From: Squalus acanthias | Taxonomy: Eukaryota | Length of the DNA stretch: 64,000 nucleotides | Assembly (NCBI GenBank): GCA_030390025.1 | Contig: CM059432.1 | Location: forward strand, 44,828,001-44,892,000 | Direction of reading: 5' to 3' | In this document: piece after piece, positions 3,480 through 63,060 of the stretch | Layout of the letters: each line of letters starts with the position of its first letter | Numbering within the stretch: position 1 is the stretch's first letter | Notes under the pieces: generated by a model | Told to the model about the DNA's origin: nothing | The model's input: the letters and a program-made list of their open reading frames with translations, nothing else | The model's database searches: none | Position numbers and translations under genes: made by a program

Positions 3480-3720
3480 ACCTTCTCAAATATCTCTTTT
3501 CACAGACCTTCCCTTTGTTCTTTCCTCCCCTCCTCCTTTTCACTGCCCTACACTTGCTTAAAAATCTGTTACTTCTCCAACTTTTTCCAGTTCTGACGAA
3601 GGGTCATCAGCCTGAAACGTTAAATCTGTTTCTCTCTCCACGGTGCTGCCTGACACGCTGAGTGTTTCCAGCATTTTCTGTTGTTGTTTCAGATTTCCAG
3701 CATCCGCAGTATTTTGCTAT
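3480..3720 (+). mobile_element. PLE family A 3' UTR fragment with hammerhead (3589-3625)
   Basis: AGTT-CTGACGA-AGGGTCATCAGCCT-GAAACGTT, homologous to the 880-1060 segment. Confidence 0.8.
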
Positions 3721-6601: not shown

Positions 6602-8650
6602 CCCAATGAGACAATCAATGATCCGGAACAGCAGACAGAGGGAACCGCAGTGCAGCAACCGAAGAAGAAAGAGTCAAATTGGACCCCTCCGGAGGGTCGC
6701 TGCCCTAAGCTTGACATGTATGCTCAAGCTGTCAGGAAATGCATCAACGCCAGAATCATCAGCCGCACTCACAAGACAGTCCAGAATGTCACCCGAGCAC
6801 AACGCAATGCCATCCACGCTCTCAAGACCAACCGCAACATCGTCATCAAACCAGCGGACAAAGGAGGAGCCATCGTCATACAGAACAGAATGGACTATTG
6901 CAAAGAAGCATACCGACAACTGGACAACCAGGAACACTACAGACAGTTACCCGCAGATCCGACCAAAGAACACACCCGCCAACTCAATAGACTGATCAAG
7001 ACCTTCGATCCAGACCTTCAAAGCATCCTACGCGCTCTCATCCCACATATTCCCCGTGTGGGAGACTTCTACTGCCTCCCAAAGATACACAAAGCCAACA
7101 CACCCGGACGTCCTATCGTATCAGGCAACGGAACCCTGTGTGAGAACCTCTCTGGGTACGTCGAGGGCATCCTGAAACCCATCGTACAGGGAACCCCCAG
7201 CTTCTGTCGCAACACTACAGACTTCTTACAGAAACTCAGCACCCATGGACCAGTTGAACCAAGAACACTCCTCGCCACGATGGACGTATCGGCACTCTAC
7301 ACCAGTATCCCCCACGATGACGGCATCGCTGCAACAGCCTCAGTACTCAACACCAACAACAGCCAATCTCCAGACACCATCCTACAACTCATCCGCCTCA
7401 TCCTTGACCACAATGTCTTCACCTTCGACAACCAGTTTTTTACCCAAACACACGTAACAGCCATGGGGACCAAATTCGCACCCCAATACGCCAACATCTT
7501 CATGCACAAGTTCGAGCAAGACTTCTTCGCTGCACAGGACCTCCAACCAACGCTGTACACCAGATACATCGACGACATCTTCTTCCTTTGGACCCACGGC
7601 GAAGGATCACTGAAAGGACTACACGATAACATCAACAGGTTCCATCCCACTATCAAACTCACCATGGACTACTCCTCAGAATCGGTTTCATTCTTGGACA
7701 CACAAATCTCCATCAAAGACGGACACCTCAGCACTTCACTCTACCGCAAGCCCACGGACAACCTCACGATGCTCCACTTCTCCAGCTTCCGCCCTAACCA
7801 CGTTAAAGAAGCCATCCCCTATGGACAAGCCCTGCGAATACACAGGATCTGCTCAGACGAGGAGGAACGCGATGGACACCTACGGACGCTGAAAGACGCC
7901 CTCGTAAGAACGGGATATGACGCTCGACTCGTCGATCGACAGTTCTGACGGGCCACAGCGAAAAATCGCATAGACCTCCTCAGAAGGCGAACACGGGACA
8001 CAACCAACAGAGTACCCTACATCGTCCAGTACTTCCCTGGAGCGGAGAAACTACGCCATGTTCTTCGCAGCCTTCAACATGTCATCGATGATGACGAACA
8101 CCTTGCTAAGGCCATCCCCATGCCTCCACTACTCGCCTTCAAGCAGCCGCCTAACCTCAAAAGTGCCATCGTTCGCAGCAAATTACCCAGCTGTCAGGAG
8201 AACAGCGACCACGACACCACACAACCCTACCACGGCAACCTCTGCAAGACATGCCAGATCATCAACACAGATACCATCATCACACGTGAGGACACTACCC
8301 ACCAGGTACATGGTACACACTCATGTGACTTGGCCAACGTTGTCTACTTCATACGTTGCAGGAAAGAATGCACCGCGGCATGGTACATCGGCGAGACCAT
8401 GCAGACACTGAGACAACGTATGAACGGACACCACGCAACAATCGCCAGGCAGGATTGTTACCTCCCAGCCGGGGAACACTTCAGCAGTCAAGGACATTCA
8501 GCCTCGGATCTGCGGGTTAGCGTTCTCCAAGGCGGCCTTCGAGACACACGACAACGCAAAATCATCGAGCAGAAACTGATAGCCAAGTTCCGCACCCATG
8601 AGGATGGCCTCAACCAGGATCTCCGTTTCATGTCACACTACAGAATGTGA
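6602..8650 (+). pseudogene. PLE reverse transcriptase + GIY-YIG endonuclease ORF with one in-frame stop (7946-7948)
   Basis: Motifs IKPADKGG, LPKIHK..PGRPIVS, MDVSALYTSIP, AMGT, RYIDD, NVVYFIRC..WYIGET. ORFs 6587-7948 and 8120-8650 share a frame with no other stop between them. Confidence 0.93.
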
Positions 8651-8884
8651 CTCGACATCGTTGTCTGGTTCACAGGTGTGATTTCCAGTTTTTTTTAAAA
8701 AAAAGTAAAAAGCTTAACTGCAGACTGCAGCATTTGACGCGTTGGACCCCCTGTGACCCACCTCATTGTCTTAGTTGTACTCTGCTGTGTCTTTGATGTA
8801 ATGCCTCCCTGACGGATTGTATCTCTGCAGACACATTGTTCTCTGTCTATATATACTTTGTAATCGACTTGTATTCCCTCACTG

Positions 8885-8919
8885 TACCTGACGAAGGAGC
8901 AGAGCTCCGAAAGCTCGTA
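8885..8919 (+). ncRNA. Minimal hammerhead ribozyme (PLE family B)
   Basis: TAC-CTGACGA-AGGAGC aga GCTCC-GAAA-GCTC-GTA: stem I TAC/GTA, palindromic AGCT stem III, predicted cleavage after CUC. Confidence 0.85.
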
Positions 8920-11900
8920 ATTTCAAATAAAACTGTTGGACTATAACCTGGTGTTGTGCGACTTCTCATTTTTGTGGGAAAGGGTTGGTGGGAAGCGGCG
9001 GTTAAAAATTTTAAAACGGTGAAGGGGTCCCCAACCCGTTGCGTACGTTCCTGACGCCACTTTTCACGGGTTTCGTGGCGTACGCGTGTCCCGCCGTGGA
9101 GAGGCGGGACAGTTTATTAACATATTAAATCAGGCTCCCACAGTGCAATTTGAATTTAATAGTTGCTGCGTTGGTTTCTCAGGGCTCAGGAAACCTGACG
9201 GTAAAAGGAAAGCGGGAGCTGCCAGCTAAAGAAAATAAGTGCCTTTTACAGCACTCTTTGTGAGGCAGGAGGAGCAGGAGTGCTTCCCCTGGCCCCTCAA
9301 GTAAGCCTTCGGCCTCCCTTCTGCCAATCGTGGCCTCTCTCTCCTGCTTGCCGCGATTGCAGATCTCACCCACCAAGCACCGTGGCCCGCTCCATGCTGT
9401 GATTGCGGACGACCTCCCCAGCCTCCCCACCAGGCCCCAATCTCTGGCCTACCCCATTCCCGATTGTCAGGGACTGTCGCCAAGGGTCTCTGGCTGCGGC
9501 CTCCTGGCGATGGTTTTCAAATAGCCAGCTGCTGGGCGGGAATTGGAAGAAAAAATTTATAATGAGATCCTACCGTTTAATTTGGCAGGACCTCCACGTC
9601 CCTGGTCTCAAAGCGTTCCCCGGCCGTTTTCACTTTCCCCCGCATTCCTGCCTGCCTCCCTGTAAATATCCGAACCTTTGTTTCTTTACTGTTAAATCTA
9701 TGTGCACTGTCCTGGATAAGGATGAGTGGCAAACTATTCTAGATGCTTTCAATGCTAGATGAATTATTAGATAATTAATGCTGCCTGTGACATCTTAGAA
9801 CAATATTTTACTGTATTAAATGAGGTATGGCCAGATAGTGTAATATTTTATTGAAATTACAGTCAATGTAAATGTGCAAACCTAAAAAATTTATAATCAT
9901 GACAAGTCCCCATTAATCAGAATCTGATAGTGTTCATGTATTTTGTCCATGTACTTTGGCCAAAGCATAGCATCAACCTGAAAAATGAGCCTTGGCTATG
10001 TCATTGTTTTAAATGCTGAAGAAAATGTGGAAAATTAGTTCAGTTTAATCTGAATTACAAATGAATTGTTTTGAAATTGTGTGTGTCAATATTGAATTTT
10101 TAATGGCATTCAGAACTGATTCCTGACTGGCACTACAACCATGCCAGTAATGAGCAAACCGACAGACAGGTAAAGCAATAGCCACTCAATAGCTTAAACA
10201 GTGTCAGCATGGATGGATGGACTGGACAAATACTTTCAAAATCTGAGGATGAGCTGTCAACACTTTCCTCTCTGTCCATGGGAAGACACACAAAGAAATA
10301 TCTAAGATCCACTCTTGAGGATTAATCAGAAAAACAGGCGCTCCCAAAGGAGATCTGGAATTCTATCCAAGACAGGCATACCAGAGGGAAATCATGATTG
10401 CTACCAGGACTGCAGCTGTAGCCATGATGATTAATATTTTTGTAAGATACCAAAGGGAAATCAATCTCCTAAAGGAACAAAAATGAAAGAGAACAAATGG
10501 TGAGAGCTTTTTTAAACAGGAGTCAAGCCAACAATACTAGAATCTATCGTGTATATTTACACTTCCTCTTGACCTCCAAAGCAAAAGTACATCCAATTTA
10601 TCAATTCCTTGTACTTGCAGATCTTTTTCAGACTAAAATCATGACTTGCCTTCAGACAAAAGGCATGATGAAAAATTAACCTGCCTTATGAATTTCCAGT
10701 ATTTTCTGTTTTTATTTCAGATTTGCAGCTTTGAATGATTTTTTCTGGCCTGTAGTTTCCAGCGACTACTGCCTGATTTTTGGATGGTTGTCAGGTGGGC
10801 AGAAATCTGAAGTGTCACCTCCCAACCACTTTTGTTCCCTATCAATTTTTGCACCCTCATTTCTGGTTGATGCCAGAAATGCCCATCTTTTTTGGGGCAT
10901 TTAAGTGAGGTGGCAATGACGGAGTTACCAGCTTCTGTCATTTTACCTTAGGAGCAGTTTTCAACTGCCAGGTGCCCATTTCTACCTTTAAAAATGGGCA
11001 GCTAGCAGCTGAAAGTGCAGGGTGGGGTGTCGGGGGGGGGGGGGAGTTGGGGGGTGCTATACCAGGGTCCACCCACCTGTGATCTCTAGTCCTATCCTGC
11101 TGAAGATGGTGGGGTCAGGTGAATCACTTCATTTACATAATGGCGACAGACACTCATGCCATTGGGTGCATCTCGGGCACTTGCCTGCCCCAGGAGGCTG
11201 GGTATGCCGTCAGATGGTGCCAGGTCGGGTACTGATCTTGGATAAATAAAAAGAAAAAAACTTTAAATGCTGGAAATCTGACATGAAGACAAAAATCCCC
11301 TCCCAGAATCATATCAATACTTTGCCCAATGGACCCATGATAAAAGGGCAGAGAAAAAGTCTAAAAATGCCAAATCTACAGTGTTTCAGGCTACATCTCA
11401 GATCTGGGCCCCTAAGGTGATCCCTACATCCGCCATTGGTGGGGCTGGTTCGGCCAGTTTCACTAGGCGTTACTGGTCTGTCAATCTTCTGCCAAGCCAA
11501 GCACATGGGAACTCCCAGCCTCGGAGTCCCCGTCCCCAGTCACACCCCTCCTGTGCTGTAGGACTTGCTTGGGGTGGGTAAAAGCTTTGTCCTACATAAG
11601 GCCCCACAGAAACACCCGGGGAATGTGGGAACCCAGCGTACCTGGGCCCTGGCATTTTTCACAAACTTTTCACTGCACTCCCAAAAAAAACCACTTTCAG
11701 AATATCTGCTGCCCTTTAGAAGTAAGGTGACTCCTTTGTTTGAAAGTCAAGCTAGTTGCAAATTCCATTTTTGTTTTAATATCTTTTGATTGCCTCACTG
11801 ATGATGTTTTATATCATCTAACAGTTTCCTGTTTTTCCATTAAGCAGTTGGAGGTTGTTCAACACATTATCTCCCTCGCTGTGATTAGAGTATCTGATGT

Positions 11901-15157: not shown

Positions 15158-16055
15158 TCAGATGAGGTGATCACAGACATTCCGGGCAGAAAGGGGCTGT
15201 CTGGATTGCCTCCACCCTTCTATTTCCTCCTCCTCCACTTCCTCCTCTTCCACCTCCTCCTCCTCAGCCGGTCGGCGTATGCCTGGTGGCAATGGCTGTG
15301 CCCTCATGATGGCGAGGTTGTGGAGCATGCAGCGGACCACCACGAATCCGGAGTACTCTGGTGAGTACTGCAGGGCTCCCCCATAGTGGTCTAGGCAGTG
15401 GAAATGTTGTTTAAGGACACCAATGGTCTGCTATATCAGATTCCATGTGGCAGCATGGCTTTCGTTACATGTATGCTGCACACGTGCGTTGGTTGCACAG
15501 CGGAGTCATGAATCAGGTGGTCAGCGAATAGCCCTTGCCTCCCAGTAGCCACCCTGTCATTTGATGTAGTGGCTCCAAGACTGAGGGAACAGTGGACTGG
15601 CGCACAATAAAAGCATCATGGCTGCTGCCAGGATACGGGCATTCACCATCATGACGTACTGAGCATGGTTGCACACCAACTGTACATTCGTCGAGTGGTA
15701 AGCTTTGCAGTTGTGGTACATCTCAGCATTTAGATGCGGTGCCCGCAAAGCCATGTGCGTGCAGTCGATGGCGTCCTGTACCATGGGGAAGTCCGCTATC
15801 TTGGCAAAGCCACGTGAATGCGCCACGTGAATGCTCCACCTGCTTCTCTCTGGTCAGAGAGAAACCAATGAAGTCCCCTCTCCTGGCATAAAGACCGTCT
15901 GTCACCTCTCTTATGCAGCAGTGGACGGCGAACTGGGAGATGTTATAGATGTCGCCTGCTCCAGCTTGGAAGGATCCCGATGCAAGGAAATTAAGGGCTA
16001 CGGTCACCTTCACAGTCACTGACAGTGCTGTCCTTGTCCTGGTGTGAGGCTGCAG
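15158..16055 (-). pseudogene. Harbinger (HARBI1-like) DDE transposase remnant
   Basis: ALNFLASGSFQ..ISQFAVH, FPMVQDAIDCTH, NVQLVC, and C-terminal CMLHN plus an acidic tract. Confidence 0.9.
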
Positions 16056-36021: not shown

Positions 36022-37775
36022 GAACATAAGGACATAAGAAATAGGAGCATGAGCAGGCCATTCGGCCCCTCGAGCCTGCTCCGCCATTTAATGAGATCAT
36101 GGTGGATCCGATTTTGGCCTCAACTCCACTTTCCTGTCTGTTCCCCATAACCCTGGACTCCCCTGTTGCTCAAAAATCTGCCTATCTCAGCCTTGAATAT
36201 ATTGAATGACTCAGCTTCCACAGCTCTCTGGGGTAAAGAATTCCAAAGATTCACGACCCTCTGAGTGAAGAAATTCCTTCTTATCTCCGTCTTAAATGGG
36301 TGACCCCTTATTCTGAGACTATGCCCCCTCGTTCTAGATTCCCCCACGAGGGGAAACATCCTCTCAGCATCTACCCTGTCCAACCCCCTCAGAATCTTAT
36401 ATGTTTCAATAAGATCACCTCTCATTCTTCTAAACTCCAATGAGTATAGGCCCAACCTGCTCAACCTTTCCTCATAAGACAAGCATTCGATCCCAGTAAT
36501 CAACCTAGTGAACCTTCTCTGAACTGCCTCCAATGCAAGTATATCCCTCCTTAAATAAGGGGACCAAAACTGTACACAGTACTCTAGGTGTGGTCTCACC
36601 AGCGCCCTGTACAGTTGTAGCAAGACTTCCCTACTTTCATACTCTATCCCCCTTGAAATAAAGGCTAACATTCCATTTGCCTTCCTAATTACTTGCTGCA
36701 CCTGCATGTTAACTTTTTGTGTTTCATGTATGAGGACACCCAGATCCCTCTGTACCGCCGCATTCTGTAGTCTTTCTCCATTTAAATAATATTTTTCTTT
36801 TCTATTCTTCCTACCAAAGTGGATAACTTCACATTTTCCTGCATTATACTCCCTCTGCCAAATTTTTGCCCACTCACTTAACCTATCTATATCCCTTTGC
36901 AGACTCTTTATGTCCTCCTCACAACTTGCTTTCCCACCTATCTTTGTATCGTCTGCAAATTTGGCTACAATACACTTTCTTTCTTCATCCAAGTCATTAA
37001 TATAGATTGAAAATAGTTGAGGCCCCAGCACTGATCCCTGTGGCACCCCACTAGTTACAGATTGCCATCCTGAAAATGACCCATTTATCTCTGTTTTCTG
37101 GTAGTTAGCCAATCCTCTATCCAATCTAATATATTACCCCCAACACCATGAGCTCTTATCTTATGCAGTAACCTTTTATGTGGCACTTTGTCGAATACCT
37201 TTTGGAAATCCAAATACACTACATCTACTGGTTCCCCTTTATCCACACTGCTCATTACCACCTCTAATAGATTTGTCAAACACGATTTCCCTTTCATAAA
37301 ACCATGTTGACTCTGTTTGATTGCATTATGATTTTCTAAATGCCCTGCTACTACTTTCTCAATAATGGATTCGAGCCTTTTGCCAATGACAAATGTTAGG
37401 CTACTGGCCTATAGTTTCCTGCTTTCTGTCTCCCTCCTTTTTTGAATAAGGATGTTACATTTGCAGTTTTCCAATCCACTGGGACTTTTCCAGATTCACG
37501 GGAATTTTGGAAGATTACAACCAATGCATCCACTATCTCTGTAGCTACTTTTAAGACCCTAGGATGCAGGCGATCAGGTCATGGGGACTTGTTAGCCTTT
37601 AGACCCATTAGTTCGCCTAGCACTTTTTCTCTAGTGATAGAAATTGTTTTAAGTTCCTCCCTCCTTTTTGCCCCTTGATTTTTTACTATTACTGAGATGT
37701 TTTTAGTGTCCTCTACTGTGAAGACAGATACAAAATATTTGTTCAATGCCTCTGCCATTTCCTTGTTTCCCATTA
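36022..37775 (-). mobile_element. CR1 LINE 3' portion (RT)
   Basis: 334-aa ORF 36120-37124 with GVPQGSVLGP and KFADD; CR1 tail at about 36022. Confidence 0.95.
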
Positions 37776-37929: not shown

Positions 37930-40040
37930 CTTTGTCCTTCTAGGTGGTAGAGGTTGCATGTTTCGGAGGTGCTGTTGAAGAAGCCTTGGCGAGATGCTGC
38001 AGTGCATCTTGTAGATGGTACACACTGCGGCCATGGTACGCTGGTGGTGGAGGGAGTGAATGTTTAAGGTCGTGGATGGGGTGCCAATCAAGTAGGCTGC
38101 TTTGTCCTGGATGGTGTCAAGCTTCTTGGGTGTTGTTGGAGCTGCACTCATCCAGGCAAATGGAGAGTATTCCATCACACTCCTGACTTGCACCTTGTAG
38201 ATGGTGGAAGGACTTTGGGGAGTCAGGAGGCGAGGCACTCGCCACAGTTTATGTGGCTGGTCCGGTTAAGTTTCTGGTCAATGGTGACCCCTAGGATGTT
38301 GATGGTGGGGGATTCAGCGATGGTAATGCCATTAAATTTCAAGGGAAGGTGGCCAGATTCTCTTGTCGGAGATGGTGATTACCCTGCACGTTTGTGGTGA
38401 GAATGTTAATTGCCACTTATCAGCCCAAGCCAGGTCTAGCTGCAACAAATACAAAAGCAAAATACTGCGGATGCTGGCAATCTGAAATAAAAACAGAAAA
38501 TGCTGGAAATACTCAGCAGGTCAGGCAGCATCTGTGGAGAGAGAAACAGCATTAACGTTTCAGGTCGATGACCCTTCGTCATAACTGGAAAAAGTTGGAG
38601 ATGTAACAGATTTTTAAGCAAGTGTAGAGGCAGGGAGAGGGGGGAGGGGAGGAAAGAACAAAAGGGAAGGTCTGTGATAGGGCCGAAGGCAGGAGAGATT
38701 AAGATACAAGGGATGATGGTGCAAGACAAAAGGAGATGGTAATGGAACAAGTTAAGAAACAAAAGATGACTCTAGATGAAGTGTAAATGCCAGTGGCAGA
38801 ATGATCGACAGCTGCCATGTGAGAGAGAGAAAAAAAATAATGATGGGGCAGAGGTTATGGTCTGAAATTGTTGAACTCAATGTTGATTCTTGCTGCATGT
38901 GGGCACAAACTGCTTCATTATCTGAGGAGTTGCGAATGGAACTGAACACTGTGCAATCATCACCGAACGTCCCCACTTCTGACCTTATGATGGAGGGAAG
39001 GTCATTGAAGAAGCAGCTGAAGATGGTTGGACATAGGACACTGCCCTTAGGAACTCCTGCAGTGCTGTCCTTGGGGGCTAGATGATTGGCCTCCAACAAC
39101 CACAACCATCTTCCTTTGTGCTAGGTATGACCCCAGCCAGTGGGTAATTTTCCCCCTGATTCCCACTGACTTCAATTTTACTGGGGCTCCTTCATGCCAC
39201 TCTCGGTCAAATGCTGCCTTGATGTCAAGGGCAGTCACTCTCACTTCACCTCTGGAATTCAGATCTTTTGTCCTTGTTTGGACCAAGGCTGTAATGAGGT
39301 CGGGAGCTGAGTGGTCCTGGTGGAACCCAAACTGAGCATTGGTGAGCAGGTTATTTGTGAATAGGTCCCACATAATAGCACTGTCAACGGCACCTTCCAT
39401 CACTTTGCTGATGATTTAGAGTAGACTGATGCGGTGGTAATTGGCCAGATTGGATTTGTCCTGCTTTTTTTGTGGACAGAACATACCTGGGTAATTTTCC
39501 ACTTTGTCAGGTAGATGCCAGTGTTGTAGCTGTACTAGAACAGCTTGGCTAGAGGCGTGGCTAATCCTGGAGCACAAGGATGCAGCAAGACAGCCGGGAT
39601 ACTGTCGGGGCCCATAGCTTTTGCTGTATCCAATGCGCTCAGCCATTTCTTGATATCACTTGGAGTGAATCGAATTGGCTGAAGACTGGCTTCTGTGATG
39701 GTGGGGACGTCAGGAGGAGGCCGAGATGGATCATCCACTTGGCACTTCTGGCTGAAGATGGTTGGAAATGTTTCAGCCTTGTCTTTTGTACTCATGTAGC
39801 TGATCTCTACCATCATTGAGGATGAAGATGTTCATGGAGACTCCTCTTCCCGTTATGTTGTTTATTTGTCCACCACCATTCATGACTGGATGTTGTAGGA
39901 CTGCAGAACTTTGATCTGATGCATTGGTTGTGGGATCGCTTACCTCTGTCTATAGCATGCTGCTTCTGCTGTTTAGTATGCATGTAGTCCTGTGTTGTAG
40001 CTTCACCAGGTTGGCACCTCCTTTTTAGGTACGCCTGGCA
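37930..40040 (-). mobile_element. CR1-group LINE family B fragment interrupted by a PLE
   Basis: Homologous to 42720-44420; ALDIKAAFD, FFNDLP. Confidence 0.9.
38443..38885 (-). mobile_element. PLE family A 3' fragment with mutated hammerhead (ATGACGA core, 38551-38587)
   Basis: Homologous to 880-1320. Confidence 0.8.
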
Positions 40041-48495: not shown

Positions 48496-48669
48496 AGTGG
48501 AGATTTTCAACCTGCCGCCTGGGCATAAAATTGCCATTGCAGATCGACCCATCAAGCTCATTATAGAAACCACTCAATTTTCATTTAATGCAAATTGGGC
48601 AGTTTCTATAAAGGTGGCCAATCCGCAATGTCAGTTTTATGCCCAGGCAGCAAGTTGAAAATCTACCCC
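48496..48669. mobile_element. Short palindromic MITE
   Basis: AGATTTTCAACCTGCCGCCTGGGCATAAAA pairs with TTTTATGCCCAGGCAGCAAGTTGAAAATCT. Confidence 0.8.
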
Positions 48670-49065: not shown

Positions 49066-49396
49066 GGGCTGGATTTTGATACGGGGCGGGTTGGGGTCGT
49101 GTCATCCGCATTTTGTGTTATCCACCCAACTGCAATTGGATGTGGGAGATTGATGCAATTTTCACCTAATTGGGCAATTGAGTTCCAGCATGTGGGAACC
49201 CATGAACCAATTAGTGGTTTCAGTCTGAAAGTCGCCTCTGATGATGTCATCATTGCTGATGCATTGAAGGTCAGAGACTGCCTGGCCTTTGCTGTGAGAG
49301 GACCAGAGAGAGAGAGATGCAGAGGGAGAGAGAGATGCAGAGGGAGAGAGAGATGCAGAGAGAGAGAGAGAGAAAGAGAGATGCAGAGAGAGAGAG

Positions 49397-49433
<37 letters not shown>

Positions 49434-49876
49434 GAGAGATGCATCCAGGTCCGCTCACAGCAAAGGCCAGGCAGTCTCCGAAGACCTTCAATGCAGCAGC
49501 ATCAGAGGCGACTTTCAGACCTAATACTACTACTACCTTCATCACATCTCCGTTGTAATAGTGGACCTGTAGCTGATAGTCAGCTATGTGCTCCCGCCAG
49601 CTTTCACATTTGTGGTTCAGAACAGGCGTGCTTCACGTAGAACAAGGGTTAAAATCACAAAGGCCTTTCAAAATGGCATTATAGAGCCAATTTAGTGCTT
49701 GTTAAGGGCCTTAACAGCCTATCCCACCTCTTAAAGGCGGGACGGAGTCGGGACCAGCAGACACGATTTAATGAAAATTGCGTGGAGGCGGACTTGTGCC
49801 CGCCCGCCAGTTTTTGCAATTTTAACCCCCCACACGCCTCCAAACCCGCCTCCACGGGTCAATGAAAATCCAGCCC
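49066..49876. mobile_element. Harbinger-type MITE, AAT TSD
   Basis: Perfect 12-bp TIR GGGCTGGATTTT/AAAATCCAGCCC; AAT on both flanks. Confidence 0.88.
49305..49442. repeat. (GA)n / GAGAGAGATGCA microsatellite
   Basis: Directly visible. Confidence 0.95.
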
Positions 49877-53155: not shown

Positions 53156-54270
53156 AGAATCATAGAATGGTTACAGCACTGAAGGAGGCCATTTGGCCCG
53201 TTTAGCCGGTGCCAGCTCTCTGCAAGAGCACTTCAGCTAGTATCACTCCCCCGCCCGTTCCCCGTAGCCCTGCAAATTTTCTTCCTTCAGGTACTTATCC
53301 AATTCCCTTTTGAAAGCCACGATTGAATCTACCTGCACCACCCTTTCAGGCAGTGCATTCCAGATAATAACCACTCGCTGCGTAAAAAAGATTTTCCTCA
53401 TGTCGCCCTTGGTTCTTCTGCCAATCACCTTAAATCTGTGTCTTCTGGTTCTCGACCCTTCCACCAATGGGAACAGTTTCTCTCTATCTACTCTGGCCAG
53501 ACCTGTCATGATTTTGAACACCTCCTATCAAATCTCCTCTCAAGCTTCTCTGCTCTAAGGAGAACAAACCCAGCTTCTCCAGTCTATCCACGCACCTGAA
53601 GTCCCTCATCGCTGGAATCATTCTCATAAATCTTTTCTGCACCCTCTCTATGGCCTTTACATCCTTCCTAAAGTGCGGTGCCCAGAATTGGACACAATAC
53701 TCCAGTTGAGGCCAAACCAATGTTTTATAAAGGTTCATCATAACTTCCTTGCTTTTGTACTCTATGCCTCTATTTATGAAGCGGAGATGCCGATGTTGGA
53801 CTGGGGTGGACAAAAATGAGAAGTCGCACAACACCAGGTTATAGTCCAACAGTTTTATTTGAAATCACAAGCTCCGAAAGCTTGTGATTTCAAATAAAAC
53901 TGTTGGACTATAACCTGGTGTTGTGCGACTTCTCATTTCTATTTATGAAGCCCAGGATCCCATATGCTTTTTTAACCGCTTTCTCAACCTGCCCTGCCAC
54001 CTTCAACAATTTGTGCACACGTCTCTCTGTTCATGCACCCCCTTAAGTAACGTACCCTTTATTGCCTCTCCTCATTCTTCCTACCAAAATGTATCACTTC
54101 ACACTTTTCTGCGTTAAATTTCATCTGCCACGTGTCCGCCCATTCCACCAGCCTGTTTATGTCCTCTTGAAGTCTATCACTATCCTGTTCACTATACTTC
54201 CAAGTTTTGTGTCATCTGCAAATTTTGAAATTGTGCCCTGTACACCCAAGTCCAAGTCATTAATATATAT
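53156..54270 (-). mobile_element. CR1 3' fragment
   Basis: LEYCVQFWAPH and FFTQRV..WNALP; tail AGAATCATAGAAT. Confidence 0.9.
53783..53937. mobile_element. PLE-derived fold-back insertion 1, 14-bp TSD
   Basis: TSD TCTATTTATGAAGC at 53769-53782 and 53938-53951; arms of about 60 bp match 8910-8970. Confidence 0.9.
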
Positions 54271-55027
54271 CATAAGAACATAAGAAGTAGGAGCAGGAGT
54301 AGACCATTTGGCCCTTCGAGCCTGCTCCGCCATTCAAGAAGATCATGGCTGATCTTCGACCTCAACTCCACTTTCCTGCACTATCGCCATATCCCTTGAT
54401 TCCCTTAATATTCAAAAATCTATCGATCTCTGTCTTGAATATACTCATGATGCGGAGATGCCGGTGTTGGACTGGGGTGGACAAAAATGAGAAGTCGCAC
54501 AACACCAGGTTATAGTCCAACAGTTTTATTTAAAATTACGAGCTTTCGGAGCTGCTGCCCTTCGTCAGGTAGAGGTACAGTGAGGGAATCTAATACACAG
54601 TATATATACACAGAGCAGACAAGTCGCTCTCTGTGTATATATACTGTGTATTAGATTCCCTCACTGTACCTCTACCTGACGAAGGGGCAGCAGCTCCGAA
54701 AGCTCATAATTTTAAATAAAACTGTTGGACTATAACCTGGTGTTGTGCGACTTCTCATTTTTGAATATACTCAACGACTGAGCCTCCACAGCCCTCTGGG
54801 GTAGAGAATTCCAAAGATTCACCACCCTCTGAGTAAAGAAATGTTTCCTCATCTCAGTCCTAAATGGCCGACCCCGTATTCTGAGACTGCGACTCCTGGT
54901 TCTAGACTCCCCAGCCAGGGGAAACATCCTCCCTGCATCTACCCTGTCAAGTCCTGTAAGAATTTTGTATGTTTCAATGAGATCACCTCTCATTCTTCTA
55001 AACTCTAGAGAATATAGGCCTAGTCTA
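54271..55027 (-). mobile_element. CR1 3' fragment
   Basis: LGLYSLEFRRMRGDLIE..WNSLP; tail CATAAGAACATAAGAA. Confidence 0.9.
54448..54760. mobile_element. PLE-derived fold-back insertion 2, 13-bp TSD, hammerhead on each arm
   Basis: TSD TTGAATATACTCA at 54435-54447 and 54761-54773; arms about 133 bp; hammerhead cores at 54537-54571 (-) and 54673-54708 (+). Confidence 0.92.
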
Positions 55028-56989: not shown

Positions 56990-58795
56990 ATGTTTTATAA
57001 GTACATTAAGAGCAAGAGGATAACTAAAGAAAGAGTAGGGCCTATTAGAGACCATAAAGGTAATCTGTGTGTGGAGGTGGAAGACATGGGTATGGTTCTT
57101 AATGAATACTTTGCGTCTGTTTTCACAAAAGAGAGGGGCGATGCAGACATTGCAATCAGGGAGGAGGAGTGTGAAATATTAGATGAAATAAACATAGTGA
57201 GAGAGGAAGTATTAAAGGGCTTAGCAGCTTTGAAAGTGGATAAATCCCCAGGCCTGGATGAAATGTATCCCAGGTTGTTAAGAGAAGCAAAAGAGGAAAT
57301 AGCAGAGGATCTGACCATCATTTTCCAATTCTCTCTGGCTACAGGTATGGTACTGGAGGACTGCTAACATTGTACCTTTGTTTAAAAAAGGAGAAAGGGT
57401 TAGACCGAGTAATTACAGGCCAGTCAGCCTAACCTCGGTGGTGGGAAAATTATTGGAAAAAGTTCTGAGGGACAGGATAATTCTTCATTTAGAAAGACAC
57501 GAATTAATCAAGGACAGTCAGCATGGATTTGTTAAGGGAAGATTGTGTCTGACTAACTTGCTTGAATTTTTTGAGGAGGTAACAAGGAGGGTCAATGAGG
57601 GTAGTGCATTTGATGTAGTGTATATGGATTTTAGCAAGGCTTTTGATAAGGTCCCACATGGCAGACTGGTCACGAAAGTGAAAGCCCATGGGATCCAGGG
57701 CAAAGTGGCAAGTTGGATCCAAAATTGGCTCAGAGGCAGGAAGCAAAGGGTAATGGTTGATGGGTGTTTTTGTGACTGGAAGGCTGTTTCCAGTGGGGTT
57801 CCGCAGGGCTCAGTACTAGGTCCCTTGCTTTTTGTGGTATATATCAATGATTTAGACTTGAATGTAGGGGGTATGATTAAGAAGTTTGCAGATGATATTA
57901 AAACCGTCTGTGTGGTTGATAACGAAGAAGAAAGCTGTAGACCGCAAGAAGATATCAATGAACTGGTCAGGTGGGCAGAACAGTGGCAAATGGAATTCAA
58001 TCCAGAGAAATGTGAGGTAATGCATTTGGGGAGGGCTAACAAGGCAAGGGAATACACATTAAATGGTAGGACAGTGAGAAGTGTAGAGGGACAAAGGGAC
58101 CTTGGAGTGCAGGTCCACAGATCCCTGAAGGCAGCAGGCCAAGTAGATAAGATGGTTAAGAATGCATACGGAATACTTGCCTTTATTAGCCGAGGCATAG
58201 AACACAAGAGCAGGGAGGTTATGCTTGAACTGTATAAAACACTAGTTAGGCCACAGCTAGAGTACTGCGTGCAGTTCTGGTCACCACATTACAGGAAAGA
58301 TGTGATTGCACAAGAGAGGGTACAGAGGAGATTCACGAGGATGTTGCCTGGACTGGAGAATTTTAGCTACGAGGAAAGATTGGATAGGCTGGGTTTGTTT
58401 TCTTTGGAACAGAGGAGGCTGAGCGGAGACCTTATTGAGGTGTATAAAATTATGAGGAGCCTAGATAGAGTGGATAGGAAGCAGCTATTTCCCTTAGCAG
58501 AGGGGTCAACAACCAGGGGGCATAGATTTAAAGTAATTGGTAGGAGGTTTAGAGGGGTAATGAGGGGAAATTTCTTCATGGGGATCTGGAGCTCACTGCC
58601 TGAAAGGGTGGTAGAGGCAGAAACCCTCACCACATTTAAAAAGTGCTTGGATGTGCACTTGAAGTGCCGTAACCTACAGGGCTACAGACCAAGAGCTGGG
58701 AAGTGGGATTAGGCTGGATAGCTCTTTGTCGGCCGGCGCGGACACGATGGGCCGAAATGGCCTCCTTCTGTGCTGTAAATTTCTGTGATTCTATG
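56990..58795 (+). mobile_element. CR1 LINE 3' portion with a 444-aa uninterrupted RT/C-terminal frame
   Basis: ORF 57378-58712: NYRPVSL, QHGF, DFSKAFD, GVPQGSVLGP, KFADD; tail TTCTGTGATTCTATG. Confidence 0.95.
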
Positions 58796-59571: not shown

Positions 59572-61262
59572 TAGAATCATAGACATTTATGGCACAGAAG
59601 GAGACCATTCAGCCCATCATGTCTGTGCTGGCCAAAAAAAAACGATCTAGCCTAATCCCACTTTCCAGCTCCTGGTCCGTAGTTCGTAGGTTACAGCATA
59701 TCAACTGCATATCCAATTACTTTTTAAATGTGATGAGGGTTTCTGCCTCTACCACCCTTTCAGGCAGTAAGTTCCAGACCCCCACCACCCTCTGGGTGAA
59801 AACATTTCACCTCAACTCCCCTCTAATCCTTCTACCAATTACTTTAAATCTATGCTCCCTGGTTATTGTCCTCTCTGCTAAGGGAAATAGGTGCTTCCTA
59901 TCCACTCTATCTAGGCCCCTCATAATTTTATACACCTCAATTAAGTCTCACCTCAGCCTCCTCTGTTCCAAAGAAAACAACCTCAGCCTATCCAATCTTT
60001 CCTCATAGCTAAAATTCTCCAGTCCTGGCAACATCCTCGTAAATCTTCCCTTTGTACCCTCTCTAGTGCAATCACATCTTTCCTGTAATGTGGTGACCAG
60101 AACTGTATGCAGTACTCTAGCTGTGGCCTAACTAGTGTTTTACATAGTTCTAGCATAACCTCCCTGCTCTTATATTCTATGCCTCGGCTAATAAAGGCAA
60201 GTATCCCGTATGCCTTCTTAACCACCTTATCTACCTGTCCTGCTACCTTCATAACCTGTCATACACTCCAAGGTCCCTCTGTTCCTCTACATTTCTCAGT
60301 ATCTGATCATTTATTGTGTATTCCTTTACCTTGTTTGCCCTCCCCAAATGCATTACCTCACACTTCTCCCGATTGAATTCCATTTGCCACTGTTCTGCCC
60401 ACCTGACCAGTCCACTGATAACTTCCTGCAGTCTACAGCTTTCTTCCTCACTATCAACCACATGGCCAATTTTCATATCATCTGCAAACTTCTTAATCAT
60501 GCCACCTACATTGAAGTCTAAACCATTGATATATACCACAAAAAGCAAGGGACCTAGTACTGAGCCCTGCGGAACCCCACTGGAAACAGCCTTCCAGTCA
60601 CAAAAACACCCGTCGACCATTACTGTTTGCTTCTTGCCACTGAGCCAATTTTGGATCCAACTTGCCACTTCCCCTTGTATCCCATGGGCTTTTATTTTTC
60701 TGACCAGTCTGCCATGTGGGATCTTATCAAAAGCCTTGCTAAAATCCATGTAGACGACACCAAACGAGCTACTCTCATTGACCCTCCTTGGTCCCTCCTC
60801 AAAAAATTCAAGCAAGTTAGTCAAACATGACCTTCCTTTAACAAATCCATGCTGACTGTCTTTGATTAATCCGTGTCTTTCTAAATGATGGTTTACTCTG
60901 CCCCTCAGAACTTTTTCCAATAATTTTCTCACCACCAAAGTTAGGCTGACTGGCCTTTAATTACTCGGTCTATCCCTTTCTCCCTTTTTAAACAACGGTA
61001 CAACGTTAGCAGTCCCCCAGTCCTCCGGCACCACACCTGTAGCCAGAGAGGATTGGAAAATGATGGTCAGAGCCTCTGCTATTTCCTCTCTTGCTTCTCT
61101 TAACAGCCTGGGATACATTTCATCCGGGCCTAGTGATATATCTACTTTCAAAGATGCTAAACACCTTAATATTTCCTCTCTCACTATGTTTATCTCATCT
61201 AATATTTCACACTACTCCTCCTTAACTACAATGTCTGCATCATTCCTCTCTTTTATTAAGAC
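59572..61262 (-). mobile_element. CR1 LINE 3' portion (same subfamily as 56990-58795)
   Basis: ORFs 60249-60938 and 59983-60252 are highly similar to the plus-strand copy. Confidence 0.95.
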
Positions 61263-62878
61263 ATTGGCCTTTTCACCTGGGACCTGGGCAGAAACCCAAA
61301 CTAGAATGATAGGATGAAAGTCTACTCTGTCAAATGTGTGTGTGTGCGTTTTTCCCTACACGTACCCTTTATTCAACTCCTTTTTACATACTGTTCATCG
61401 ATAGTATCTTCCAATTCTGATGACGGGTCCATACCTGAAATATATCTGTTCTCTCCACAGATGCTGCCTGGCAAGCTGAGTGTTTCCAGCATTTTCTGTT
61501 CCTGTTTCAGATTTCCAACATCTGCAGCATTTTACTTTTCGTTGAACCTCTTTATAATGATACACAGGAATCTGGTGCAAATGCATTAGCAAGTGCTCAG
61601 ATAGGTGGTATGGGATGTGGAACAATGCCGCACTATTGCAGTAGGTGGTGCTCTTCTAAGATTTGAAATGAAGCACATTGAGATAAAAATAATGCTTCTG
61701 CACTCATGTTGGAACTGCAGATTGCAAAGATACACAACTCCAGCTTGTAATTTTCAGCTCATTAATTATAATGGACTGAAAGTCACAGTCTAGCCACATG
61801 CAATTCCATGTTATGCTCTTTGGAGGGACTGAGAGCACAGAAACAGAAATTTTACTCCTTTATTGGGGCAGAATAGTTTTACTCTGGACTTAACTATGCT
61901 GTACCTGTGATAAACACAACATTCACAAAAAAAAACTTACACGAGGGAAGGTGACAAAAATTTAAATCTCATAAATAGAAACTGAAATGCATCAAAATGA
62001 CCTGAAATCGCAAAACTGTTTTGAAGGACTCATATTGTAAATCCATTGGGAGCCCACTGGAACAGATTGAGTCAGGATCCAGTTAGGTCAGATCCAGGCC
62101 TTAAGTGCGAGATTCCATGATGCCTTTGTGAGGGCGGAGTCTCCCCCCACCCCTAGCCTCTACAAGGCCATCGATGTAAGGGACTCCCTAAGATGCCGTA
62201 TAATCCCCGAAGGTACACCTGTTCTCACCAGGAGTACCTTACTGATTCCATTAGAAGTGGGGCCCACTTTGGAGTCCAGTTTGGGATTGGAGCTTGGACT
62301 CCTGAAAATAGCAAGGCCAAAAAAGAGGGCTCCTTGGACAACCAGCCTTTTCTTCCAAGGGAGACTTGTCCTCCCAGGCCAGCCAGCTACTGCTGGCATT
62401 TCTGGCTTTCTAGATTCTCCATTGGGTGGGCCCCCACGCCACCAAATGTCCACTCCTGCAGGCCCCACCTCCCTAACCCAGCTCCTACAGGAAGAGGAGC
62501 CCACACCTCTGCCAGGTACTGTTTCAGCACAGAATGAACTACCTTTCCTCCAGATCATGTTCCATTAAAAAATAACATGATTTGGAGCCATTTGTGCAGG
62601 TTCAAAATGGATTAATGTCCAAACACAACAGACATCTATGAGTGCCCGGGAGCTGAAGGAGCATTTAAAATGCAAAAAGGACCAATTATAAGTGTGATTT
62701 TACACTTTTTTTCTAATTTTTTAAACCATCTAGTAGGTAAGACTTTGTACCATCGGTTCCACCACTGGTATATTTAGCATCAGTGTCTCTGCTTTGCACC
62801 TGGGGAGTGCTCAGTTCCCAAGGGCAAAGCACAGGAAAAAGAGGCATAGACACATGAGACTCTGCCCTATTTACATTG

Positions 62879-63060
62879 AGAGGTCGCACAACACCAGGTT
62901 ATAGTCCAACAGTTTTATTTTAAATCACAAGTTTTCGGAGTTACGAGTTGTAACTCCGAAAGCTTGTGATTTAAAATAAAACTGTTGGACTATAACCTGG
63001 TGTTGTGCGACCTCTCAATTTTGTCCACCCCAGTCCAACACCGGCATCTCCGCATCATGA
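62879..63060. mobile_element. PLE-derived fold-back insertion 3, 12-bp TSD
   Basis: TSD CTATTTACATTG at 62867-62878 and 63061-63072; arms about 70 bp plus a 40-nt extension ending CCGCATCATGA. Confidence 0.9.

Follow-up and report, generated by a model that had tools for sequence, protein, structure and literature searches.

In Penelope-like elements (PLEs), an inverted, truncated copy joined head to head to its partner, with a tail of 30–40 bp on one side only, is typical (PMC8557442, PMC3846280), and insertions of endonuclease-bearing elements have further been described with a target-site duplication (TSD) of about 10 bp, a hammerhead within the pLTR, and a TATA-like motif accompanied by TCACT (Craig et al. 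2021, PMC8557442; Arkhipova et al. 2013, PMC3846280). The inverted copy and its tail are also described in PMC8969392 and, in general terms only, in PMC12910113. Dual minimal hammerhead ribozymes (min-HHRs), located on opposite strands about 100–700 bp apart and displaying an extra base between positions 9 and 10.1 as well as a palindromic 15.2–16.2, have been ascribed to truncated PLEs (Cervera and De la Pena 2014, PMC4209133); the passage on these dual motifs concerns Schistosoma, and the main text does not contain the word shark. For PAc, a Poseidon-clade element of Anolis carolinensis, the protein cleaves and extends both strands of AT-rich targets, the tail is bounded by two internal sites at which reverse transcription begins, and hammerhead mutants still insert (Frangieh et al. 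2024, PMC11167929). Rearranged Drosophila Penelope copies with long inverted repeats are able to form long dsRNA, and their small RNAs have been measured (PMC3681739, PMC3136932). Finally, non-LTR retrozymes are short, non-coding, PLE-derived units with type I hammerheads (PMC7761336; bioRxiv 10.64898/2026.07.22.740005).

Here we describe a fold-back insertion at positions 54448–54760 of a 64-kb stretch of shark DNA (hereafter the window), which combines many of these features. The locus includes the head-to-head copy, the one-sided tail, the hammerhead, and the TATA-like and TCACT motifs of published PLE insertions. Of each of its two copies only the terminal region remains, and hence no ORF lies between them, unlike in the complex insertions described in those accounts. 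The TSDs of the fold-backs in the window are 12–14 bp long, compared to 8–10 bp in the Adineta examples (PMC3846280), and the host is a shark. The two hammerhead cores start 108 bp apart and share the extra base and the palindrome reported for dual min-HHRs, along with an apparent origin in truncated PLEs. Its potential for long dsRNA is like that of rearranged Drosophila Penelope, for which small RNAs were measured. Retrozymes consist of direct tandem repeats with two same-strand ribozymes from which a circle is released, whereas the shark insert is inverted with one motif per strand; retrozyme identity, which according to the 2026 preprint calls for two or more hammerheads on the same strand of direct tandem units, was thus rejected. 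The inverted copy with tail, the dual opposite-strand min-HHRs, and the siRNAs from Penelope inverted repeats are therefore already in print, and no description of shark PLE fold-backs was found among the papers listed in the literature searches.

Anatomy of the insertion and its source family

The features of the insert and of the longest related copy in the window are listed below, where X4 denotes a DNA sequencing run.

54435–54447, no strand: left copy of the TSD, 13 bp, in the 3' region of a LINE; the final 3 letters are shared with the end of the PLE tail; single copy in the LINE paralogue
54448–54484, minus: one-sided PLE tail, 37 nt; the same tail occurs in the copies at 53783–53937 and 62879–63060; X4 contigs end at 54446/54447
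54485–54615, minus: tailed arm, 131 nt; PLE terminal region, sense on the minus strand
54616–54628, plus: loop, 13 nt; upstream continuation of the tail-less arm; only this polarity gives an alignment to the long copy
54629–54760, plus: tail-less arm, 132 nt; PLE terminal region, sense on the plus strand
54761–54773, no strand: right copy of the TSD; its first 3 letters match the continuation of the PLE family
6602–8971, plus: long 5'-truncated PLE copy of about 2.4 kb, with a reverse transcriptase and GIY-YIG-type endonuclease frame, an in-frame stop at 7946–7948, and a hammerhead motif at 8888–8912; no tail, no inversion; 10-bp TSD (6592, 8972)

The 313-bp insert is flanked by identical 13-mers, at 54435–54447 and 54761–54773, which have only these two occurrences in the 64-kb window. 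It interrupts a LINE whose paralogue at 36130–36280 includes the same site once, unbroken, and empty-site sequence continuing past 54447 was recovered in 239 X4 contigs. The 313-bp insertion with a 13-bp TSD proposed in an initial annotation of this DNA is thus confirmed by the identical flanks and by a LINE site found both occupied and empty. Since three letters at each TSD end also match the PLE, the borders of the insert are uncertain by up to 3 nt. The two arms are oriented head to head around the 13-nt loop, with each core starting 47 nt past it, and differ at two places, a substitution (54706) and an indel of 1 nt within stem II of the hammerhead, while the tail forms an unpaired extension on one side only. 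Arms previously given as about 133 bp were close to the 131 and 132 nt found here, and the extension, given as about 35 nt, measures 37 nt. Overall, this fold-back pattern is far beyond what chance would produce.

The arm sequence occurs three further times in the window. When compared to 8827–8975, i.e., the 3' region of the long copy, the arms display 84.5–86.6% identity, with 1–2 differences in the last 57 nt. The upstream frame of this long copy was identified as a reverse transcriptase (RVT_1, E = 2.4e-09), and its C-terminal piece, which has no Pfam match of its own, is 34% identical over 233 aa (E = 8e-43) to a homologue carrying PF01541 (P0028), with the DKG motif present. Among the matches listed, the closest proteins, annotated from a shark, share 92% identity, and proteins of other sharks come next at 74–85%. 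All 60 homologues that show the endonuclease motif among the 120 matches listed, including the 92%-identical ones, contain a CX2-5CxxC linker, of which only the CxxC half is visible in the long copy of the window. Such a linker characterizes the Neptune and Nematis clades (PMC8557442), and, as judged from these protein sequences, the source family is an endonuclease-bearing PLE with a Neptune/Nematis-type linker. A Penelope/Poseidon clade label, which is defined by the lack of a zinc-finger-like linker, was dropped given the linker present in the homologues of the family. Consistent with a PLE insertion, the locus displays an inverted, 5'-truncated head-to-head copy, a tail within the 30–40-bp range at one end only, and a TSD on the order of 10 bp at an AT-rich site. 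Taken together with the match between the arms and the 3' region of a reverse transcriptase-bearing copy, this upholds the PLE origin and the inverted pseudo-LTR with tail that the initial annotation had recognized.

A scan of metagenomes with a 24-nt motif of the family yielded 0 matches. Within the window, no host-gene family was detected above the cut-off in 132 of the 144 stop-to-stop frames outside self-repeats (the 12 in PLE copies were left out, and short exons would be missed). Remnants of a DDE_Tnp_4 transposase, which we take to be Harbinger-type, are located at 15516–15853 on the minus strand, where one of two matches passes the Pfam cut-off.

Sibling fold-backs and the proposed origin

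Two other copies of the family in the window are fold-backs as well:

53783–53937, no strand: C53, a sibling fold-back; arms of 60 nt, identical to each other; loop of 5 nt flanked by two AGCT; 14-bp TSD (53769, 53938); tail on the left; core cut off
62879–63060, no strand: C62, a sibling fold-back; arms of 70 nt, 1 difference between them; loop of 5 nt falling in the stem II region; 12-bp TSD (62867, 63061); tail on the right; core cut off

The apexes differ in all three fold-backs of the window, each of which consists of one tailed and one tail-less arm. The turning points of C53 and C62 fall inside the hammerhead, so that neither retains a whole core. Across 57 shared positions, the two arms of a locus show 0–1 differences, compared to 3–7 between fold-back loci, and both arms of each locus share the variants of that locus. 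TSD lengths are 13, 14, 12, and 10 bp in the four family copies, the fourth being at a less AT-rich site. Given three loci with three apexes, each with its own TSD and variants, the hairpin looks to have been made de novo at each insertion (n = 3) rather than to be a mobile mini-element. A MITE-like unit is not apparent either, as neither of the two siblings shares the apex of the insert and the ends are asymmetric (three fold-backs, window only). The term “mini-element” used in the initial annotation, if meant as a mobile unit, is therefore not retained.

Loops and junctions further constrain how these copies were formed. The loop at 54616–54628 aligns to the long copy with a local score of 70 when read with the tail-less arm, against 56 otherwise, and the loop has the polarity of the tail-less arm in both informative loci (the 54448–54760 insert and C53), with C62 being uninformative as it turns in stem II. 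At the four tail-less junctions, the TSD starts with 3, 1, 4, and 4 letters that match the continuation of the family; the simulated chance of a sum of at least 12 is 0.0013, or 0.0074 when targets are AT-rich. These short matches differ from the behavior of PAc in vitro, for which no homology between target and start site was seen (PMC11167929). At the tail-end junction, the 54448–54760 insert shares 3 letters with its TSD. At the C53 target site (53769–53782), the TSD matches 7 of 9 of the last letters of the tail, which hints at priming by pairing across a mismatch.

We also used contigs from 4 of 23 sequencing runs, aligned to 54380–54628, to which run X22 contributed 0 records and run X21 19. 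At the tail end, 61 and 66 X4 contigs end at 54446 and 54447, respectively, with flanks unlike one another (agreement of 0.37–0.38), which defines the outer end. Ten of the 14 listed X4 joints link the same LINE site to a tail-less start at 54482–54500, and thus represent other LINE copies with a tail-less end at nearly the same position; this suggests that the nick at this site can take either start. The pile-up of X4 joints at 54444–54447 is partly built in, because the reference flank ends there, and 4 contigs include 1–2 letters in between. One strand-change joint is found among the 14 listed. Other copies of the LINE with PLE ends near 54435–54447 may reflect a preferred cut site, and are in part a reference effect. 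Summed X4 depth, which is not a copy number, is ~8.7 million at 54506–54514, 38,000–89,000 at 54560–54613, 8,400 at 54614–54622, and 0 at 54623–54628, the last bins being at the reference edge where a hole proves nothing. This roughly hundredfold drop between the 3' part and the hammerhead and above is in line with heavy and variable 5' truncation.

We consider it likely that locus 54448–54760 is the dead-on-arrival product of one PLE integration, generated by two-nick, two-start priming with cDNA fold-back, in which the hammerheads are passengers. The PLE protein would nick both target strands 10–14 nt apart, and one nick would prime reverse transcription at the inner start site, which corresponds to the tail-less end. 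The resulting cDNA would stop early, fold back at a short local inverted repeat, and copy itself, the candidate repeats being the AGCT pair in C53, stem II in C62, and an imperfect stem in the 54448–54760 insert. The opposite nick would prime at the outer start site, supply the tail, anneal to the self-copy, and close the insertion. In a variant of this scheme, the tailed cDNA would jump onto the tail-less cDNA and yield the same product. The long copy at 6602–8971 would be the case without fold-back, and the fact that it is tail-less, like one arm of each fold-back, was counted in favor of two starts. This model would account for the shared variants, the short loops, the loop polarity, the one-sided tail, and the TSD. 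The priming steps are modeled on PAc, a Poseidon-clade element, whereas the relatives of the window family carry the CX2-5CxxC linker; we infer by analogy across clades that the same biochemistry would apply to a Neptune/Nematis-type family.

The same product could be obtained without a second priming if the tail-bearing antisense strand folded back and was copied in full, with the tail lost from one end at endonuclease-mediated resolution. Such self-priming on an antisense template was proposed on the basis of palindromes seen at the junctions of inverted copies (Arkhipova et al. 2013, PMC3846280), and predicts head-to-head arms, shared variants, short loops, and loop polarity as observed here. 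We nevertheless regard it as unlikely: by itself it does not account for the target-matching letters at the tail-less junctions of all four copies, nor for a tail-less long copy with its own TSD, and both borders of the tail are start sites for reverse transcription on sense RNA in vitro (PMC11167929). A snap-back by the tailed cDNA alone was rejected, as it would place the loop with the tailed arm. Another scenario would be that the hairpin is itself a non-autonomous mini-element, for which the PLE protein copies a fold-back master in one piece. The clean TSD and near-identical arms would be expected in this case, sequences between pLTRs are movable in trans in Adineta (PMC3846280), and the right-arm variant of stem II, with four Gs, is found in 6 X4 contigs (summed depth of 402), which makes it probable that a small subfamily shares this arm sequence. 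However, the window fold-backs display different apexes and variants in all three cases, and the X4 depth falls as expected from variable truncation (the last bins being the reference edge). In addition, the RNA template of such an element would be double-stranded over both start regions, tail excepted. Overall, we consider copying of the hairpin as a unit quite improbable. Gene conversion at a later time could likewise make arms identical, and short loops can flip after insertion.

Hammerhead motifs and possible read-through RNA

Each arm of the insert includes a hammerhead motif and, further upstream, a pair of promoter-like motifs:

54536–54571, minus: predicted minimal hammerhead motif of the tailed arm; core 54568–54544; all 3 bp of stem I retained; stem II lacks one G; cleavage would fall between 54540 and 54539
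54673–54708, plus: predicted minimal hammerhead motif of the tail-less arm; core 54676–54701; stem I, of three pairs, has its first pair disrupted by A at 54706, beside the inferred cut
54579–54608, minus: TATA-like 54601–54608 and TCACT initiator-like 54583–54579 in the tailed arm; motif match only, resembling motifs of PMC3846280
54636–54665, plus: TATA-like 54636–54643 and TCACT initiator-like 54661–54665 in the tail-less arm; motif match only

A CTGACGA..GAAA core followed by AGCT is thus located on the plus strand at 54676–54701 and on the minus strand at 54568–54544, which agrees with the initial annotation of one such motif per arm and per strand. Both arms and the long copy display the core letters of CUGANGA/GAAA hammerheads, the extra base after A9, stem II, the palindromic 15.2–16.2, and C at H17. 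Importantly, however, both motifs of the insert are lesioned, which had gone unmentioned: in the right arm 2 of the 3 stem I pairs remain, the first being broken (3 of 3 in the left arm and the long copy), and in the left arm stem II is weaker, at −3.9 compared to −6.0 and −6.4 kcal/mol. We infer that these two motifs are passengers of the insertion. Hammerhead models in Rfam expect longer helices. None of them matched anywhere in the window at E values up to 1, so the ribozyme call stands on motif and context. Four other Rfam matches in the window (MIR7696, mir-4703, and uc_338 hairpin look-alikes, and one snoRNA model) are all below the gathering score and were set aside as fitting chance.

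A second repeat family with a hammerhead-like core was observed at 876–1100, 3500–3718, 38456–38708, and 61409–61536, with core matches at 974 (minus) and at 3593 and 61417 (plus). In a self-comparison of the window, a nearby inverted arm was detected for none of its 4 copies, compared to 3 of 4 in the PLE family of the insert. The base following the palindrome is T at 974 and 3593, and T in this position usually makes a poor hammerhead cut site.

If the locus is read through, long dsRNA is indeed predicted, as previously suggested, since both strands fold as one long hairpin (MFE of −250.5 and −246.7 kcal/mol). Such a read-through RNA would form a hairpin of ~130 bp that buries the ribozyme, and may represent a passive ADAR or Dicer substrate rather than a switch. 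ADAR and Dicer act on long dsRNA hairpins of this kind. As for other inverted repeats in the window, a pair of 1.7-kb repeats (57118–58793 and 59572–61263, 87.6% identical, ~0.8 kb apart) represents a far longer potential dsRNA than 54448–54760, and older, imperfect inverted repeats with 77–79% identity were identified at 48501–48664 and 49223–49520, for which no link to the PLE family was found. In a further sequencing run, X15, which is RNA only by guess, 2,483 records were obtained that are not assignable to this locus, and their A>G differences also occur in the DNA run X4.

The initial annotation had gone further and suggested that the transcript could alternate between long dsRNA and an active, possibly dimeric hammerhead, and that the dsRNA could silence the PLE family. 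The core letters are kept in both motifs, Penelope inverted repeats give rise to siRNAs in transgenic Drosophila (PMC3681739), and a PLE hammerhead is protein-assisted in vitro (PMC11167929), so that a protein might remodel the RNA. However, with arms in head-to-head orientation, transcription of either strand reaches the antisense copy before the ribozyme, with the core at nt 242 vs its antisense at 128 in the plus transcript, and at 206 vs 92 in the minus transcript. When transcript prefixes were folded, a complete core was already paired in the shortest of them (mean unpaired probability of 0.041 and 0.050) and stayed so in later ones (0.017 and 0.0003), and freeing the 35–36-nt ribozyme segment, with stem II formed and the antisense refolded, was predicted to cost 63.2 (plus) and 71.8 (minus) kcal/mol. 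Moreover, no cleavage was reported for min-HHR monomers and low cleavage for dimers (PMC4209133), and the siRNAs of Drosophila Penelope are unable to silence the element efficiently (PMC3681739). With the antisense first, the folding cost, a lesion in each arm, and the poor cleavage of min-HHRs, a switch is extremely unlikely, and this part of the initial annotation is not borne out. A transcription start inside an arm is the only escape from burial, and would yield separate RNAs, not a switch. Candidate motifs for outward firing can be recognized: each arm contains the TATA-like TATATATA (54601 and 54636), followed 17 nt downstream by TCACT, although this is a match of motifs only, and the long copy has a TATA-like motif at 8848 and TCACT at 8879, 23 nt apart and upstream of the core as in both arms. 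A similar TATA and TCACT pair occurs in Adineta pLTRs (PMC3846280), and an internal Penelope promoter could drive neighboring sequences (PMC2377424). Divergent firing would thus produce two short RNAs, each with a ribozyme motif free of its antisense. Conversely, the Drosophila Penelope promoter is TATA-less (PMC2377424), the contigs give no readable start sites, and the outward RNAs did not adopt the hammerhead fold when folded unconstrained. We thus ascribe a low probability to such divergent transcription, which in any case would be a possible side effect of the insertion rather than its origin.

Fold-backs as possible records of PLE integration

Considered by itself, a single locus matters little, being one of very many decayed PLE ends. 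The geometry of this locus, however, itself rules out a read-through ribozyme switch, and this applies to every head-to-head PLE fold-back. From the copies in the window we tentatively suggest a rule, which could hold but which we would not yet count on: one arm would always originate from the outer and one from the inner site of reverse transcription, the loop would always belong to the inner, tail-less cDNA, and a few target letters would pair with the template at the priming point, such that fold-backs would represent frozen records of integration. We found no statement of this two-start and loop rule in the literature on Penelope twin priming or self-priming that was covered, which excludes most subscription papers. 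If the rule holds over very many shark copies, the inverted copy and the tail would both be explained by a single mechanism with two nicks and two starts. Shark fold-backs, being short and numerous, lend themselves to testing how PLEs form inverted copies and tails, beyond the four copies examined here, and they may also contribute to the long dsRNA of shark transcripts.
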